This document shows positions 50,430 through 56,566 of a stretch of DNA of 64,000 nt, piece by piece. Position 1 is the stretch's first letter, and every line of letters starts with the position of its first letter. Location of the stretch: positions 608,001-672,000 of the forward strand of contig CM000436.1 of assembly GCA_000165345.1 (NCBI GenBank), given 5' to 3'. The notes under the pieces are model-generated. The model did not search any database. It saw only the letters and a list, made by a program, of their open reading frames with translations, and was not told where the DNA came from. Both the position numbers and the translations under genes were made by a program.

Positions 50430-52169
50430 TTAATCAGCAGCTCCAACAGTTTGAATACCACTCTTACCACTTTCTTTAATAGCAATATACCTACTACCTT
50501 TACTTTCTAGCCTATCATCTCCGGATGCTTCAGATTCTTCAGTTTCTTCATCATCATCAAAAATTAATTTACCTTCTTGAGAGTTGCTCGAGGTAATACC
50601 TTTTAAAGACTTTCTTTCTTTGAAAGGTACTTTTGATTCAACTTTAGCAGTGAATTTTAGAGTATCAAATTCAGTAGTAGGTAAATGCTCTGATTCATAT
50701 TCAGTATTTTGAGTAATAAAAACCTCGCTAGGACCTTGTGTTTCAGTTGAAGTAATAGAAGGCTCAATATTTGTTTCAACAACAGTAGAATTCACTAGTC
50801 TCTGGGTTGCCTTTGATAACTTTTCTAGATTGCTCTTTTCAATTACAAATTGGCCATAAACTTGAGGAATTCCTTGCCATCTAATGAAGTAATAATAAAC
50901 AGCGGCAATAACATAGTCCATTTCGTTCCACTTTCTTGTATTATACTTGATATTTGTTAAAGTACAGTATCTGGTTTTTTCAACAGAATGAACCCAAGTC
51001 TTTAAAGGAGATTTCTTCCAAAGTGAGTCTGGATACTGCTTCCATGCTGCTCTAGTCATTGGTTTCTTCTTTTTTTCTCCTCCATATGTTTGTTTCCCAA
51101 AATCTAGAAAACGGAAGATTTTCTGCTTTAAATCTCTAAACCATTTCTTAATACCATTTTCCTTGTAATTTGATCTTTCTACATTACCAAGAAGATATTG
51201 TAATTGCCTTTCATAGAGAATTACTGAGAGACCAAAAAGTCCTTCAGGAGAAAGTAATAAATTGGGTGAAAGTTTCTCTAGAGCTTCAGATGAAAGCTCA
51301 TACTTTTGTAACTCAATATGTTCATAAATATTTCCAAGATACTCAATTGAAGAAGGAATTCTCTCCAGATTTACAGCATTCTCATTATTGCCTTCCTCTG
51401 GTGGTAAAGTCGTACTTTCGGAATGTATTTTCCATCCAGGTTCACAGTAAACAACATTGGGATTTCCAATACCTTTACATCTTTCTTTAGAAAAGCATCT
51501 TCCTTGAAAGAAGTCTCTCAAAAATGGCTTAATTTCACAATTTGGACAGTAATACTTCTTCTGAAAAGCTGATAAGGTATTTTTTCCACTATAACCTTTA
51601 CGTTTTCCTCTAAACTCGATATATTTTCTAATAACAGCCAATGGATATAAATCATATAATGCAACTTTATCCAATGGAATATTTAGCACTTTACTTTCCT
51701 GTCTTGTGATCCAAGATCTTATTTGAGAAACTGTTACTACAGGATGTTGATATGAATATAGTGGACCCCAAGGAAATAATGGCTGGCTATCCAGATCTTT
51801 TGGTTGTCCATTAAAGTTTCTCATACTAGACAAAGAGAAGAAATAAAGCATGATTGAAGTCATTGTAATTGTCTCTCCATCTGCTCCTGTTAAATCTATG
51901 CTAGTACTTGTTGGCACTCCATTTGTATAGTTTGGATCCTCTGGATTAAGTGGGTAAAACAAGCTTGATAATACTTGTGGTACAGTTCCTCTCTTCATTG
52001 TTGTCATGGAGAGATAAATATTCTCTCCAATAGTACCTGCTAAGCTTCCAAACAATGTCACACCTGCTCCAGCAATGAGTGCAACATCCACTGATCCTAA
52101 TGATCCACCAGATACTAACACAGCTAATAGCCCAATTACAAAGCACAATAAAATTACTTTTCCTTTCAT
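50430..52169 (-). CDS. Secreted protein, paralogue 1 of a tandem three-member lineage-specific family
   Basis: A signal peptide, then a Gly/Ala-rich segment, then blocks shared with the next two genes (YLSMTTMKRGTVPQVLSS, MLYFFSL, PLFPWGP, ILYERQLQY, AAWKQYPDSLWKKSP, AAVYYYF, GIPQVYGQFV). The C-terminus is acidic. Confidence 0.7.
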   Translation of the reverse strand: MKGKVILLCFVIGLLAVLVSGGSLGSVDVALIAGAGVTLFGSLAGTIGENIYLSMTTMKRGTVPQVLSSLFYPLNPEDPNYTNGVPTSTSIDLTGADGETITMTSIMLYFFSLSSMRNFNGQPKDLDSQPLFPWGPLYSYQHPVVTVSQIRSWITRQESKVLNIPLDKVALYDLYPLAVIRKYIEFRGKRKGYSGKNTLSAFQKKYYCPNCEIKPFLRDFFQGRCFSKERCKGIGNPNVVYCEPGWKIHSESTTLPPEEGNNENAVNLERIPSSIEYLGNIYEHIELQKYELSSEALEKLSPNLLLSPEGLFGLSVILYERQLQYLLGNVERSNYKENGIKKWFRDLKQKIFRFLDFGKQTYGGEKKKKPMTRAAWKQYPDSLWKKSPLKTWVHSVEKTRYCTLTNIKYNTRKWNEMDYVIAAVYYYFIRWQGIPQVYGQFVIEKSNLEKLSKATQRLVNSTVVETNIEPSITSTETQGPSEVFITQNTEYESEHLPTTEFDTLKFTAKVESKVPFKERKSLKGITSSNSQEGKLIFDDDEETEESEASGDDRLESKGSRYIAIKESGKSGIQTVGAAD

Positions 52170-52822
52170 TCTAATATTTCCTTATAACTCAAGTTGTACT
52201 TTCTTTTTACAAAATTACTTATATTTTAATATTGCTCTTTTAGAAGTTCCTTTGTAATCAATCTATGCTTTAAATATATGTATATGCATAAATACAAATA
52301 TTAACTTTAATTTGTGTAAGCAATAAAATGCAGCTTCTAGTGTAAACCCCACTAATTTCTTTCTTAATTCCTTTCAAAAATTTTATTCTAATGTCTCCAT
52401 TAATATTCGCTCGTTATCATCTATTATATAATTTTTACTATTTATTGTCTATTTAATACATTGCATTTATGCATTTTTTTAATTCGATACCTATTAATTA
52501 ATTTAACAGGTTTATCTACCCCTCCTTTCTTTGTTATACTTAATTTCAACGCATTTATTTATTTTGCACATAATAACTTACATTAGCTATAAGCTTGACA
52601 AAATTTATGTCAAGTCTATTGTTAATTTTAGATTAAAACTTCATTCTTATTCAAATATAATTAACAGTCATTTCTTTAATTCATTAACTCGAAATAATTA
52701 AATGGGACTAACCGCCTATTTTCCCGCCTAATGTAATTTCTGTTAGAAGTGCATGTAATGGGGGGAGGGGAAGGAGTATGTTAATACTTTGAATTATTAA
52801 TATTATATCTCATGATTAAAAA

Positions 52823-54472: not shown

Positions 54473-55015
54473 GGTGTCACTAATTTAAAAGAAAATTAAA
54501 ATATTACAACTATTTATATTTTTAGTATCCAATTTTTTTCGAGCAAAATTGCAAACAAGAGACGTTACCATGTCAGTATATGCCAGGCAAATTACATAGC
54601 TATTCAACTAATTATTAGAAATTTAATTTTTAATCAACTTATCACTAATTATTCAATTTACAATAAAAATTCTACACATTGTATGCTAATTATTTCATTC
54701 TTTGCTTTTCCTTCTTCATAATACAATAAAAATTTTCTTCAGTGCAATTACCGTTATCCAGGGTTGCATACATGCAAGATATTTATTAAAGAAATTTTAA
54801 TTCCCGCCCAACACATAGCAATAAAATAAATAAATTTATTGCAATAATACATACATTAGAGTTATTCAAAGCAATAAGATTATCATCAATGGATTAGTAG
54901 AACAGGTTACAAATTAAATTAAATTTAAAAATTAAACGAGGGTAAAGATTTAAAAAACAAAATTATCAGATATTTGCTAGTAATAGGATGTTAGGAATTA
55001 GCATAAACTAAACTA

Positions 55016-56566
55016 TTATAAATAAGTGTTTTGAGTAATAACTATTTCTGCATCGTATCTAACTGAATGCGGAACCGGCACATTATATTTCTGTAGATTT
55101 AAGGCTTCTCTTTCCAAGAGGAAGTGTTTTCTGCTTACTTTACTAACATATTGCCCATAGAGTATAGGAACTCCAAGTATGATTGAAAAGAAGTGAACAA
55201 CTGCTGCAATTGCAAAATCAAATTCTGACCATTCAGACGAACTGTAGATATCTGAACGAACTTCCTGTTGATGAGATCCGATAATGAGGTATTCTAAAGT
55301 CTTTGAAGGATTTAATTTCCAGTGTTCTTCTAGAATACGTTTCCAAGGTGCCACATTGACACGATTCTTTCCGTGAGCCAAGCCAAAAATATCAAAAAAG
55401 CATAAAGTAAACCTTATAACTTTATCTTTAAACCTGGCAAACGAGCATTTTTTGAAATTAACAGCATCGATATAATTAATATCGTATTGTCTCTCTCTTA
55501 GATATAAAATTAAAGCTAAGGTGAAGTTAACCAGCTTTTCATTCAGTTTGTTCTTTTGACAAATCTCATTTAGAGAACTTCCCTCCAAAGTATTTGTATA
55601 TTCGTGTATAACTTTCAACTCTTCAATTGCTGTTCTTTCACCTGGAATCCAAGGAACTGAAATATAACTAACCTTAGGATTTAATTTGTTCTTGCAAACT
55701 ACCGAAAGCCCCCCAATACAATGTTTCCTTCTTATTTTGAAATCAGAAATGACAGATGATGAAGATTTCAGTTCTTTTGTTTGGAAATATGAATCTAATG
55801 TAGATCTCTGTCCAATCACAGTAGAATATGTTGAGTTATTTTCGTTTACTTCTTCAAAATTGGTTCTATTCCTCTTCATTTCTACAGATGATTCATTCTC
55901 CATAAGTGGCAGCTTAATATTTTCAGAGATATCTTGTTCTTTGTTGTCAGTTTTGGATTTGTTGTTGGAATCTTTTTTCAGTTTTGGATATTTTGCCCTA
56001 AATTTAAATTTCCCATTTCGCATAGAGGAATATTTTTGTATAACAGCCAAAAGATACAATTGCCAAATATCCACATTACTTAGGGGTATTCTGATATATC
56101 CACCTTTAAGTGAAACTAAATAGTCGTAAATCCTGGTCATAGCTTGAAGAGGGTCTTCATCTAAATTAACTTCACCCCAAGGTAATGCAGGCATAATTTT
56201 ACTAGAGTAAATTGAATACTTATCATTTAAATTGGGGTTTACTGCTAAGCTAAAATAATACAGCATACACGATGATACCATAATTGTATCTCCATCCCAT
56301 TTATCAGTCCGTATGCTAAAGGTATAGTCGCCAGTTCTATCTTTTTGAATAGGCAAATAAATACTCGCCAGAATCTTTCCAATTGGGCCCCTCCTGGTTT
56401 GAGATAGCATGTAATATAAAGAGACAGTCGAAGATGCTACAGAATAGGCTGTCAAACTAGTGCTGACTGATGGAGATGCGGATGCACTATAAAACCCCTC
56501 AGCTACATCGAGATTAAGGGTATAAATGCAAATTAAAAAAATAAACAGTGATCCCAAAAAATTCAT
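55016..56566 (-). CDS. Secreted protein, paralogue 3
   Basis: Signal peptide, then the shared blocks (YYMLSQTRRGPIGKILAS, MLYYFSLA, ALPWGE, ILYLRERQYDINYID, APWKRILEEHWKLNP, GVPILYGQYVSKVS). Confidence 0.7.
   Translation of the reverse strand: MNFLGSLFIFLICIYTLNLDVAEGFYSASASPSVSTSLTAYSVASSTVSLYYMLSQTRRGPIGKILASIYLPIQKDRTGDYTFSIRTDKWDGDTIMVSSCMLYYFSLAVNPNLNDKYSIYSSKIMPALPWGEVNLDEDPLQAMTRIYDYLVSLKGGYIRIPLSNVDIWQLYLLAVIQKYSSMRNGKFKFRAKYPKLKKDSNNKSKTDNKEQDISENIKLPLMENESSVEMKRNRTNFEEVNENNSTYSTVIGQRSTLDSYFQTKELKSSSSVISDFKIRRKHCIGGLSVVCKNKLNPKVSYISVPWIPGERTAIEELKVIHEYTNTLEGSSLNEICQKNKLNEKLVNFTLALILYLRERQYDINYIDAVNFKKCSFARFKDKVIRFTLCFFDIFGLAHGKNRVNVAPWKRILEEHWKLNPSKTLEYLIIGSHQQEVRSDIYSSSEWSEFDFAIAAVVHFFSIILGVPILYGQYVSKVSRKHFLLEREALNLQKYNVPVPHSVRYDAEIVITQNTYL

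Follow-up and report, generated by a model that had tools for sequence, protein, structure and literature searches.

Three adjacent genes of Cryptosporidium parvum, cgd8_2480, cgd8_2490 and cgd8_2500 (hereafter copies 1, 2 and 3), lie head to tail on the minus strand of chromosome 8, in a stretch of 64,000 nucleotides (contig CM000436.1, positions 608,001 to 672,000; hereafter the window) with ~30% G+C, dense gene packing and mostly uninterrupted open reading frames (ORFs). We consider it probable that they constitute an ancient family of three paralogs, found only in Cryptosporidium and kept under purifying selection, whose products would enter the secretory pathway, and whose members would have become subfunctionalized by life stage, each behind a separate promoter with a generic E2F-like site. 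The three ORFs, which a first-pass annotation made from the sequence alone had proposed to be a tandem triplication, were recovered with the lengths and at the positions listed in Table 1. The paralogy is not a new discovery, since the genome-project annotation of cgd8_2500 already reads 'signal peptide, membrane protein, TM at C-terminus, paralogs' (TM, transmembrane segment), and public records label all three copies as 'signal peptide plus transmembrane'. Their cgd identifiers are backed by the supplementary gene tables of two published studies; in a literature search with the cgd, CPATCC, UniProt and CMU identifiers and with the annotation phrase, the genes were absent from the main texts.

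Age and constraint of the gene array

Copies 2 and 3 can be aligned over 485 columns with 31% identity (BLASTP, E 2e-65), and copy 1 matches each of them in two blocks, with ~29% identity to copy 2 (E 1e-17 and 4e-14) and ~26% identity to copy 3 (E 2e-18 and 6e-17). The low identity and the ordered series of shared blocks proposed earlier are therefore both real: the measured identities fall between 26 and 31%, the similarity is significant (E from 2e-65 to 1e-17), and the blocks that had been named correspond to invariant columns of the three-copy alignment, namely Y51/R59/G60, P129-W130-G131, I353-L354-Y355-R357-Q360-Y361, A406-W408-K409...W416-K417-P420 and G465-P467-G471-Q472, i.e. the patterns Y..RG, PWG, ILY.R..QY, A.WK......WK..P and G.P...GQ. 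Most of these columns also hold in a genus-wide alignment of 27 sequences. At the DNA level the likeness is confined to remnants of merely 20-30 nucleotides at conserved codon blocks, which indicates that the duplication is old and that the copies have not been homogenized by gene conversion; a recent duplication or gene conversion is thus ruled out.

The old age of the family, likewise suggested before, is supported by phylogeny, gene order and orthology. A neighbor-joining tree (429 well-aligned columns, 200 bootstrap replicates) comprises one clade per copy, with bootstrap values of 200, 195 and 194 of 200 (97-100%), and since gastric species are present in all three clades, both duplications are older than the last common ancestor of the sampled genus. 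The gene order Mtr4 - CKS - copy 3 - copy 2 - copy 1 - cgd8_2470 is common to C. muris, C. hominis, chipmunk genotype I and C. bovis; including C. parvum, five species that span the deepest split of the genus carry three copies each in a fixed order. In C. muris, the genes of the Mtr4 helicase and CKS are followed by genes encoding proteins of 477, 467 and 575 amino acids (aa), and then by one encoding a 226-aa membrane protein. The array is located in the middle of a 1,333-kb chromosome in C. hominis (632-654 kb), and in C. muris it occupies 918-940 kb of a chromosome of 1,307 kb. Orthology is clean and 1:1, with pairs of orthologs far closer than any pair of paralogs (BLASTP): copy 1 exhibits 64% identity to the 575-aa protein of C. 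muris (BLASTP local alignment; 56% in a global alignment), copy 3 exhibits 42% identity to the 477-aa protein, and copy 2 exhibits 34% identity to the 467-aa protein (both BLASTP). Copy 1 is the slowest-evolving member of the family, with 69% identity between C. parvum and C. bovis, equal to that of the helicase, and copy 2 is the fastest.

The ratio of nonsynonymous to synonymous substitutions (dN/dS) was calculated against chipmunk genotype I by the Nei-Gojobori method, and is well estimated, as dS is between 0.44 and 0.71. It is 0.096 for copy 1, 0.124 for copy 2 and 0.079 for copy 3, compared with 0.080 for the Mtr4 helicase (cgd8_2520), 0.074 for cgd8_2470 and 0.251 for cgd8_2460 in the neighborhood. 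The description of the family as diversifying is contradicted by these values, which lie around that of the adjacent helicase. The three copies are old, constrained by purifying selection and located outside any accessory region, and the low identity between them is due to their age, not to continuing diversification.

A first profile search, started from the alignment of the three proteins, gave orthologs of copy 3 alone, and copies 1 and 2 were searched separately. Word-indexed searches with each copy found matches from Cryptosporidium proteins only, and a profile hidden Markov model (HMM) of 26 members, compared with 1.84 billion representative proteins, returned six matches, all of them from Cryptosporidium, which correspond to the three clades and one fragment, without extra paralogs. 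Hence, at the sensitivity of the HMM, the family is confined to Cryptosporidium and numbers exactly three members, in agreement with the lineage-specific nature suggested before. Several families of secreted paralogs are specific to Cryptosporidium, including SKSR, MEDLE, WYLE, FGLN, GGC and CpLSP, and these families are often subtelomeric, variable in copy number and quickly diverging. The three copies resemble them in being genus-restricted, arranged in tandem, equipped with a predicted signal peptide, devoid of a recognizable domain and uncharacterized; however, they occupy a mid-chromosome site, were fixed at three before the radiation, have 1:1 orthologs and exhibit dN/dS of about 0.1. 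No homology to these families was found in the profile search, which returned solely the three clades of the family itself.

The conserved blocks match no characterized domain, as had been supposed: scans of the three proteins against Pfam and NCBIfam gave no families at E up to 1, and the best match of a sequence-profile search of the PDB (E = 0.56) was a spurious one, between the basic tail and eL24. Models calculated with AlphaFold2 from the family alignment have a predicted template modeling score (pTM) of 0.63 for copy 1, with a confident core at residues ~60-435, and of 0.69 for copy 3. Both exhibit a two-lobed, mainly α-helical core with few short strands, in which the linker between the lobes and the tails are disordered, and a comparison of the confident core with solved structures revealed no structural match. 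It is extremely improbable that the three copies represent a strongly diverged form of a housekeeping enzyme or structural fold already known.

Expression and upstream sites

Transcript levels of the three genes are available from RNA sequencing of sorted stages and bulk samples by Tandel et al. 2019 (PMC6877471), in whose tables the names of the Cryptosporidium-specific families listed above also occur; all values below are log2 counts per million. In asexual stages, females in vitro and females in vivo, respectively, they amount to 5.19, 8.95 and 7.75 for copy 1, to 8.10, 6.83 and 9.17 for copy 2, and to 7.94, 7.86 and 6.65 for copy 3 (PMC6877471). The corresponding female-versus-asexual log2 fold change is +3.76 (13-fold) for copy 1, -1.27 for copy 2 and -0.08 for copy 3, and copy 2 is higher in vivo than in vitro by +2.34 (PMC6877471). 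Bulk values in sporozoites, at 24 h and at 48 h are ~8.0, ~5.2 and ~6.8 for copy 2, and ~10.2, ~7.7 and ~7.6 for copy 3, which has the highest sporozoite mRNA of the three; those of copy 1 (~8.5, ~5.4 and ~9.0) should be taken with some caution, because in at least one bulk-cluster sheet of Supplementary file 5 the product descriptions are shifted against the gene identifiers (PMC6877471). Under the shifted labels cgd8_2480 appears as 'Glucose-methanol-choline oxidoreductase' and cgd8_2430 as 'Formin', and the identifiers are the more reliable of the two. The three copies fall into different co-expression clusters (PMC6877471), and in the study of Oberstaller et al. cgd8_2500 belongs to cluster 82 and cgd8_2490 to cluster 86. 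The possibility of co-expression raised by the first-pass annotation is not supported by these data, in which both the stage profiles and the clusters differ. The copies are not co-regulated, and their profile fits subfunctionalization by life stage, in which copy 1 would have taken a female or sexual role, copy 3 a broad one with a peak in sporozoites, and copy 2 one in asexual stages and in vivo.

An element upstream of every copy had been noted before, and it is indeed present at each of them, for copy 2 as the 8-mer core only (Table 1), but it is not specific to the family. The window contains 10 occurrences of the 8-mer GGCGGGAA, compared with 0.24 expected (none of 100 shuffles reached 10), nine of them between genes, and the 8-mer precedes cgd8_2470 and several unrelated genes as well. 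The palindrome TGGCGCCA is present in ~9 further intergenic regions, including that upstream of CKS, and one or the other motif precedes most genes of the window. Altogether, E2F-like sites were seen in ~17 intergenic regions of the window, often between divergent genes (examples in Table 1). In the work of Oberstaller et al. 2013, TTTGGCGGGAAV is motif 4, E2F-like with a GGCGGG core, and TGGCGCCA is motif 3; E2F motifs are over-represented across C. parvum upstream regions, and the clusters that carry them peak at every time point. In a 2025 study using an assay for transposase-accessible chromatin (ATAC-seq), E2F ranked first among the motifs of open chromatin across the genome, as judged by motif enrichment in peaks. 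The sites of the three copies agree with motif 4 in being intergenic, in occurring in either orientation and in being strongly over-represented, and nothing distinguishes them from ~20 other E2F-like sites of the window, all of which are candidate E2F/DP sites by sequence. The upstream element is a generic E2F-like motif of C. parvum and no signature of this family. Because this is the E2F element that promoters of C. parvum have by default, the presence of GGCGGGAA near adjacent genes does not mean that they are co-regulated, a trap that is well illustrated by this array.

The sites are conserved in position within the intestinal clade, and none was found at the C. muris locus. That of copy 1 is found at -564 in C. 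hominis, -549 in chipmunk genotype I and -458 in C. bovis; that of copy 2 at -336 in C. hominis and -340 in chipmunk genotype I, with TGGCGCCA at -332 in C. bovis; and a GGCGCC-type site precedes copy 3 at about -92 to -118 in all three. In C. bovis the sites of copies 2 and 3 have both switched to the GGCGCC form. Such position-conserved sites are probably working promoter elements, and each gene would have its own promoter, in which a generic E2F/DP site provides basal activity without any family-specific co-regulation.

These results bear on the picture drawn by the first-pass annotation, of a diversifying, lineage-specific and host-exposed family that lies in an accessory region and is co-regulated through an upstream element of its own. 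It would account for the signal-like N-termini, the genus restriction, the low identity between the paralogs, the motif upstream of all three genes and the weak enrichment of copy 2 with a dense-granule protein of the host-parasite interface (see below). Nevertheless, dN/dS is equal to that of a housekeeping helicase, the orthologs are strictly 1:1, the motif is generic and spread genome-wide, and the expression profiles differ. The family is lineage-specific, as it is restricted to the genus, but its mid-chromosome site, with synteny and a copy number of three fixed in five species, does not support a host-exposed accessory region, and this explanation, which we regard as very unlikely, is largely refuted.

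Predicted architecture and topology

Signal peptides and TM segments were assigned by a Kyte-Doolittle hydropathy heuristic with windows of 10 and 19 residues. The signal peptide that had been claimed for each copy is predicted here as well: an N-terminal hydrophobic core is present in all 27 members of the family, with a maximum 10-residue value between 2.0 and 3.4. It starts at residues 3-26, and in 26 of the 27 at residues 3-14, the exception being P0046, which appears to be an N-terminally extended gene model. In most members the core is followed by a site with small residues (G before F in copies 2 and 3, SGG before S in copy 1). Among 18 other ORFs of the window used as controls, three score alike, with their hydrophobic stretches located deeper within the protein.

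In every member an uncharged stretch of ~20-45 residues continues or directly follows the first hydrophobic one, and the unusually conserved, uncharged segment after the predicted signal peptide, ~20-35 residues long, is rich in Ser, Thr, Gly and Ala. In copies 2 and 3 this segment is under the TM thresholds. In copy 1 it includes a second hydrophobic, Gly/Ala-rich stretch at residues 29-47, almost invariant in intestinal-clade orthologs and modeled by AlphaFold2 with a predicted local distance difference test score (pLDDT) below 50, which is a possible membrane segment. Located just past the predicted cleavage site, this stretch is similar in composition to a GxxxG-type TM helix or to the fusion peptide of a virus. 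In copy 3, residues 451-469 form a hydrophobic helix, preceded by acidic and followed by basic residues, whose Kyte-Doolittle value ranges from 1.88 to 2.57 across all orthologs of this copy. Its homolog in copies 1 and 2 is amphipathic, with values below 1.3, and in both AlphaFold2 models the helix belongs to the confident core (pLDDT ~88-96), which together suggest that in copy 3, too, it may be buried in the core. For the same two reasons the annotated 'C-terminal TM' of copy 3 was downgraded from the status of a firm anchor.

Two conserved features are compatible with a core exposed to the lumen or to the extracellular space, namely a pair of cysteines (C283/C291) kept in 10 of 10 copy 3 orthologs, and two N-glycosylation sequons kept in 10 of 11 copy 2 orthologs. 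The two conserved halves of copy 2 are separated by a K/E-rich low-complexity linker, which had been taken for an acquired insert; the stretch is found in all intestinal-clade orthologs of this copy as a linker of variable length, of which the C. parvum version is the longest, and it was not newly acquired. The otherwise variable and disordered linker region contains HRRAISSRSP, a match to the RRxS consensus of basophilic kinases that is kept in all intestinal-clade orthologs of copy 2.

The C-terminus of copy 2 forms a 34-residue polybasic tail, in which the arrangement GKKRK-x10-12-KKKK is kept in C. meleagridis, chipmunk genotype I and C. ubiquitum, and basic tails of a related type are present in C. 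canis, C. felis, C. xiaoi and one Logan-derived ortholog (GKKRN...KKRK). The tail of gastric species is short and weakly K-rich, and such a tail was found neither in copy 2 of C. ryanae nor in another ortholog derived from Logan (P0046). A bipartite nuclear localization signal (NLS) was defined as two basic residues, a spacer of 10-12 residues and a cluster with at least three of five basic residues, or at least four of five in a stricter version. Copy 2 matches the pattern at residues 522-524 and 529, and at residues 522-524 also the stricter version, which makes its tail the strongest match of 22 ORFs in the window. The NLS-like tail described earlier thus exists, but its discriminating power is low, as eight of the 22 ORFs match at the usual stringency. 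The likeness to a nucleoplasmin-type NLS includes KR/KK, the spacer of 10-12 residues and the cluster with at least four of five basic residues, together with a monopartite KKRK; the difference is that the protein of copy 2 has a predicted signal peptide and carries the pattern in a lysine-rich tail of low complexity. The tail may possibly function as an NLS. The KKxx-type ends of copy 2 were considered as retrieval signals of the endoplasmic reticulum and rejected, since such ends carry no information where the tail is lysine-rich and the protein lacks a TM segment.

An alternative topology, which we find unlikely, is that the proteins are membrane-anchored, with the helical domain and the tail in the cytosol, and that the first hydrophobic stretch is an uncleaved anchor or makes a hairpin with the uncharged segment. 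The tail and the RRAIS site of copy 2 would then act inside the parasite, e.g. in binding of acidic lipids or in kinase regulation. Such a topology agrees with the position of the uncharged segment directly after, or continuous with, the first hydrophobic one in every member, with the value of that segment in copy 1, which passes the classical TM threshold, with the conservation of RRAISSRSP and of the basic tail in copy 2, some of whose C-termini fit KKxx or KxKxx, and with the public annotation of a signal peptide plus TM segment. On the other hand, the segment does not reach the thresholds in copies 2 and 3, a conserved cleavage-like site of small residues precedes it, the sequons of copy 2 and the cysteine pair of copy 3 better fit luminal exposure, and KKxx matches are expected by chance in a lysine-rich tail.

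Copy 2 is the member for which protein-level evidence was located: in a published anti-DG8 pull-down at 3 h post-infection, cgd8_2490 was represented by 8 unique peptides and 14 peptide-spectrum matches, with a log2 fold change of 2.42 (p = 0.059). Its peptides at this time indicate production of the protein at an early point of infection, and the enrichment is weakly consistent with an association with secreted interface proteins, DG8 being a dense-granule protein. Could copy 2 then be an exported effector that enters the host nucleus by means of its bipartite NLS-like tail? The tail is the strongest bipartite pattern of the window and is conserved across most of the intestinal clade, the protein has a predicted signal peptide and, by hydropathy, no other TM-like segment, it is present at 3 h with weak co-purification with interface and secretory proteins, and its expression is higher in vivo. 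However, over a third of the ORFs sampled from this lysine-rich proteome (eight of 22) match the same pattern, C. ryanae shows no such tail and gastric species only a truncated one, polybasic tails bind also lipids, glycosaminoglycans and nucleic acids, and strong purifying selection, with an old core common to two non-basic paralogs, would be unusual for a host-targeted effector. Such a role would be highly improbable.

We therefore return to the reading of an ancient secretory-pathway family as the probable one. In this model the proteins would comprise a cleavable signal peptide, the uncharged Ser/Thr/Gly/Ala segment, a helical core of ~380 residues in two halves with a variable disordered linker between them, and a variable tail. 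Both duplications would have preceded the split of the living Cryptosporidium species, after which the copies would have persisted as single-copy syntenic genes under strong purifying selection, diverging in stage and in appendages: the N-proximal hydrophobic segment of copy 1, the hydrophobic C-terminal helix of copy 3, and the K/E linker and polybasic tail of copy 2. We infer that they serve as parasite-intrinsic parts of the lumen, the surface or a secretory organelle, where the shared core would bind or scaffold across stages, and they would not be fast-evolving antigens or effectors. Several observations weigh against this model. The assignment of secretion and topology rests on hydropathy heuristics; the segment of copy 1 (1.84) and the helix of copy 3 (2.42) could be true membrane anchors, which would alter the topology and might place the core in the cytosol; and the clade-conserved RRAIS motif of copy 2 fits cytosolic exposure slightly better. 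The DG8 enrichment of cgd8_2490 is under the thresholds of its authors, and a ribosomal protein has a similar fold change. The search upstream of the C. muris orthologs gave no E2F-like site, and the absence of a known fold holds for solved structures in the PDB.

Table 1. Positions, in the window, of the three genes, their predicted protein features, upstream sites and neighbors
Feature	Position	Strand	Remarks
Copy 1 (cgd8_2480), coding sequence	50430..52169	-	579 aa; identical to Iowa II EAK89438 / CPATCC_004074
Copy 2 (cgd8_2490), coding sequence	52823..54472	-	549 aa; identical to Iowa II EAK89439 / CPATCC_004075
Copy 3 (cgd8_2500), coding sequence	55016..56566	-	516 aa; identical to Iowa II EAK89440 / CPATCC_004076
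Copy 1, predicted signal peptide	52104..52169	-	residues ~1-22, MKGKVILLCFVIGLLAVLVSGG; Kyte-Doolittle 2.58 (19-residue), 3.37 (10-residue)
Copy 2, predicted signal peptide	54410..54472	-	residues ~1-21, ending ...FSNG before F; hydropathy
Copy 3, predicted signal peptide	56495..56566	-	residues ~1-24, ending ...VAEG before F; hydropathy
Copy 1, second hydrophobic Gly/Ala-rich segment	52029..52085	-	residues 29-47, VALIAGAGVTLFGSLAGTI; Kyte-Doolittle 1.84
Copy 3, hydrophobic helix	55160..55216	-	residues 451-469, FAIAAVVHFFSIILGVPIL; Kyte-Doolittle 2.42; annotated as C-terminal TM
Copy 2, K/E-rich low-complexity linker	53816..53887	-	residues 196-219, KKDKKKQKEPKEEEEKEKVKEKKK; variable linker between two conserved halves
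Copy 2, HRRAISSRSP	~53750-53780	-	residues ~232-241
Copy 2, polybasic C-terminal tail	52826..52927	-	residues 516-549; bipartite NLS pattern match
E2F-like site of copy 1	52720..52728	-	9-mer GGCGGGAAA in the context AGGCGGGAAAA; 551-559 bp 5' of ATG
E2F-like site of copy 2	54801..54808	-	8-mer core GGCGGGAA only, in the context GGGCGGGAAT; ~330 bp 5' of ATG
E2F-like site of copy 3	56673..56684	+	12-mer TTTGGCGGGAAA, full match to motif 4; contains exact 9-mer GGCGGGAAA at 56676-56684, 110-118 bp 5' of ATG
cgd8_2510 (CKS)	56778-57360	-	small, multi-intron; between helicase and copy 3
Palindromic E2F site of CKS	57448-57455		TGGCGCCA; ~90 bp 5' of ATG
cgd8_2470	48593-49351	-	adjacent downstream gene
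E2F site of cgd8_2470	49832-49839		GGCGGGAA; ~480-500 bp 5' of the gene
Other E2F-like sites (examples)	1876-1891; 22673-22680; 40916-40923		intergenic

Neighboring genes and significance of the family

The array is flanked by genes of recognizable type. The neighboring ORF of 1280 aa encodes the Mtr4-like helicase cgd8_2520, and between it and copy 3 lies the gene of CKS, cgd8_2510, which is invisible as a long ORF; its hand-spliced translation matches the Pfam CKS family with E = 1.8e-34, and the palindromic E2F site upstream of it is apt for a cell-cycle gene. On the other side, cgd8_2470 encodes a small multi-pass membrane protein without a Pfam match, which is syntenic in all five species and exhibits 67% identity to its C. 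muris counterpart; its E2F site is kept in C. hominis and chipmunk genotype I. In C. meleagridis (P0015) and C. felis, the models of the copy 3 orthologs (569 and 585 aa) are fused with the upstream CKS and carry the name 'Cyclin-dependent kinase regulatory subunit family protein', and the copy 2 ortholog of C. felis is labeled 'ATP-dependent RNA helicase'. These fusions and labels look like annotation errors inherited from the adjacent genes.

Because the core is unlike any structure solved so far, determining its structure experimentally might uncover a new fold. A more far-reaching version, which we hold to be unlikely, is that a new fold arose in Cryptosporidium and was split into three stage-specialized secretory proteins, at least one of which operates at a membrane or at the host interface. 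In one form of it, copy 2 may be injected or exported and reach the host nucleus by its bipartite basic tail; in the other, the female-enriched copy 1 may use the fusion-peptide-like VALIAGAGVTLFGSLAGTIG on membranes in gamete or zygote biology or in oocyst formation.

Cryptosporidium is a leading cause of childhood diarrhea, and most of the secretory proteins specific to the genus are functionally uncharacterized. The novelty that is left in this family lies in its uncharacterized fold, in the possible arrival of copy 2 in the host nucleus, and in the possible action of copy 1 on membranes in female stages. On the reading that we consider probable, cgd8_2480, cgd8_2490 and cgd8_2500 would be recast from variable antigens or effectors to a constrained core family with stage-specialized members, which would be better suited to studies of conserved parasite biology, and as pan-species markers or targets, than to those of immune evasion.

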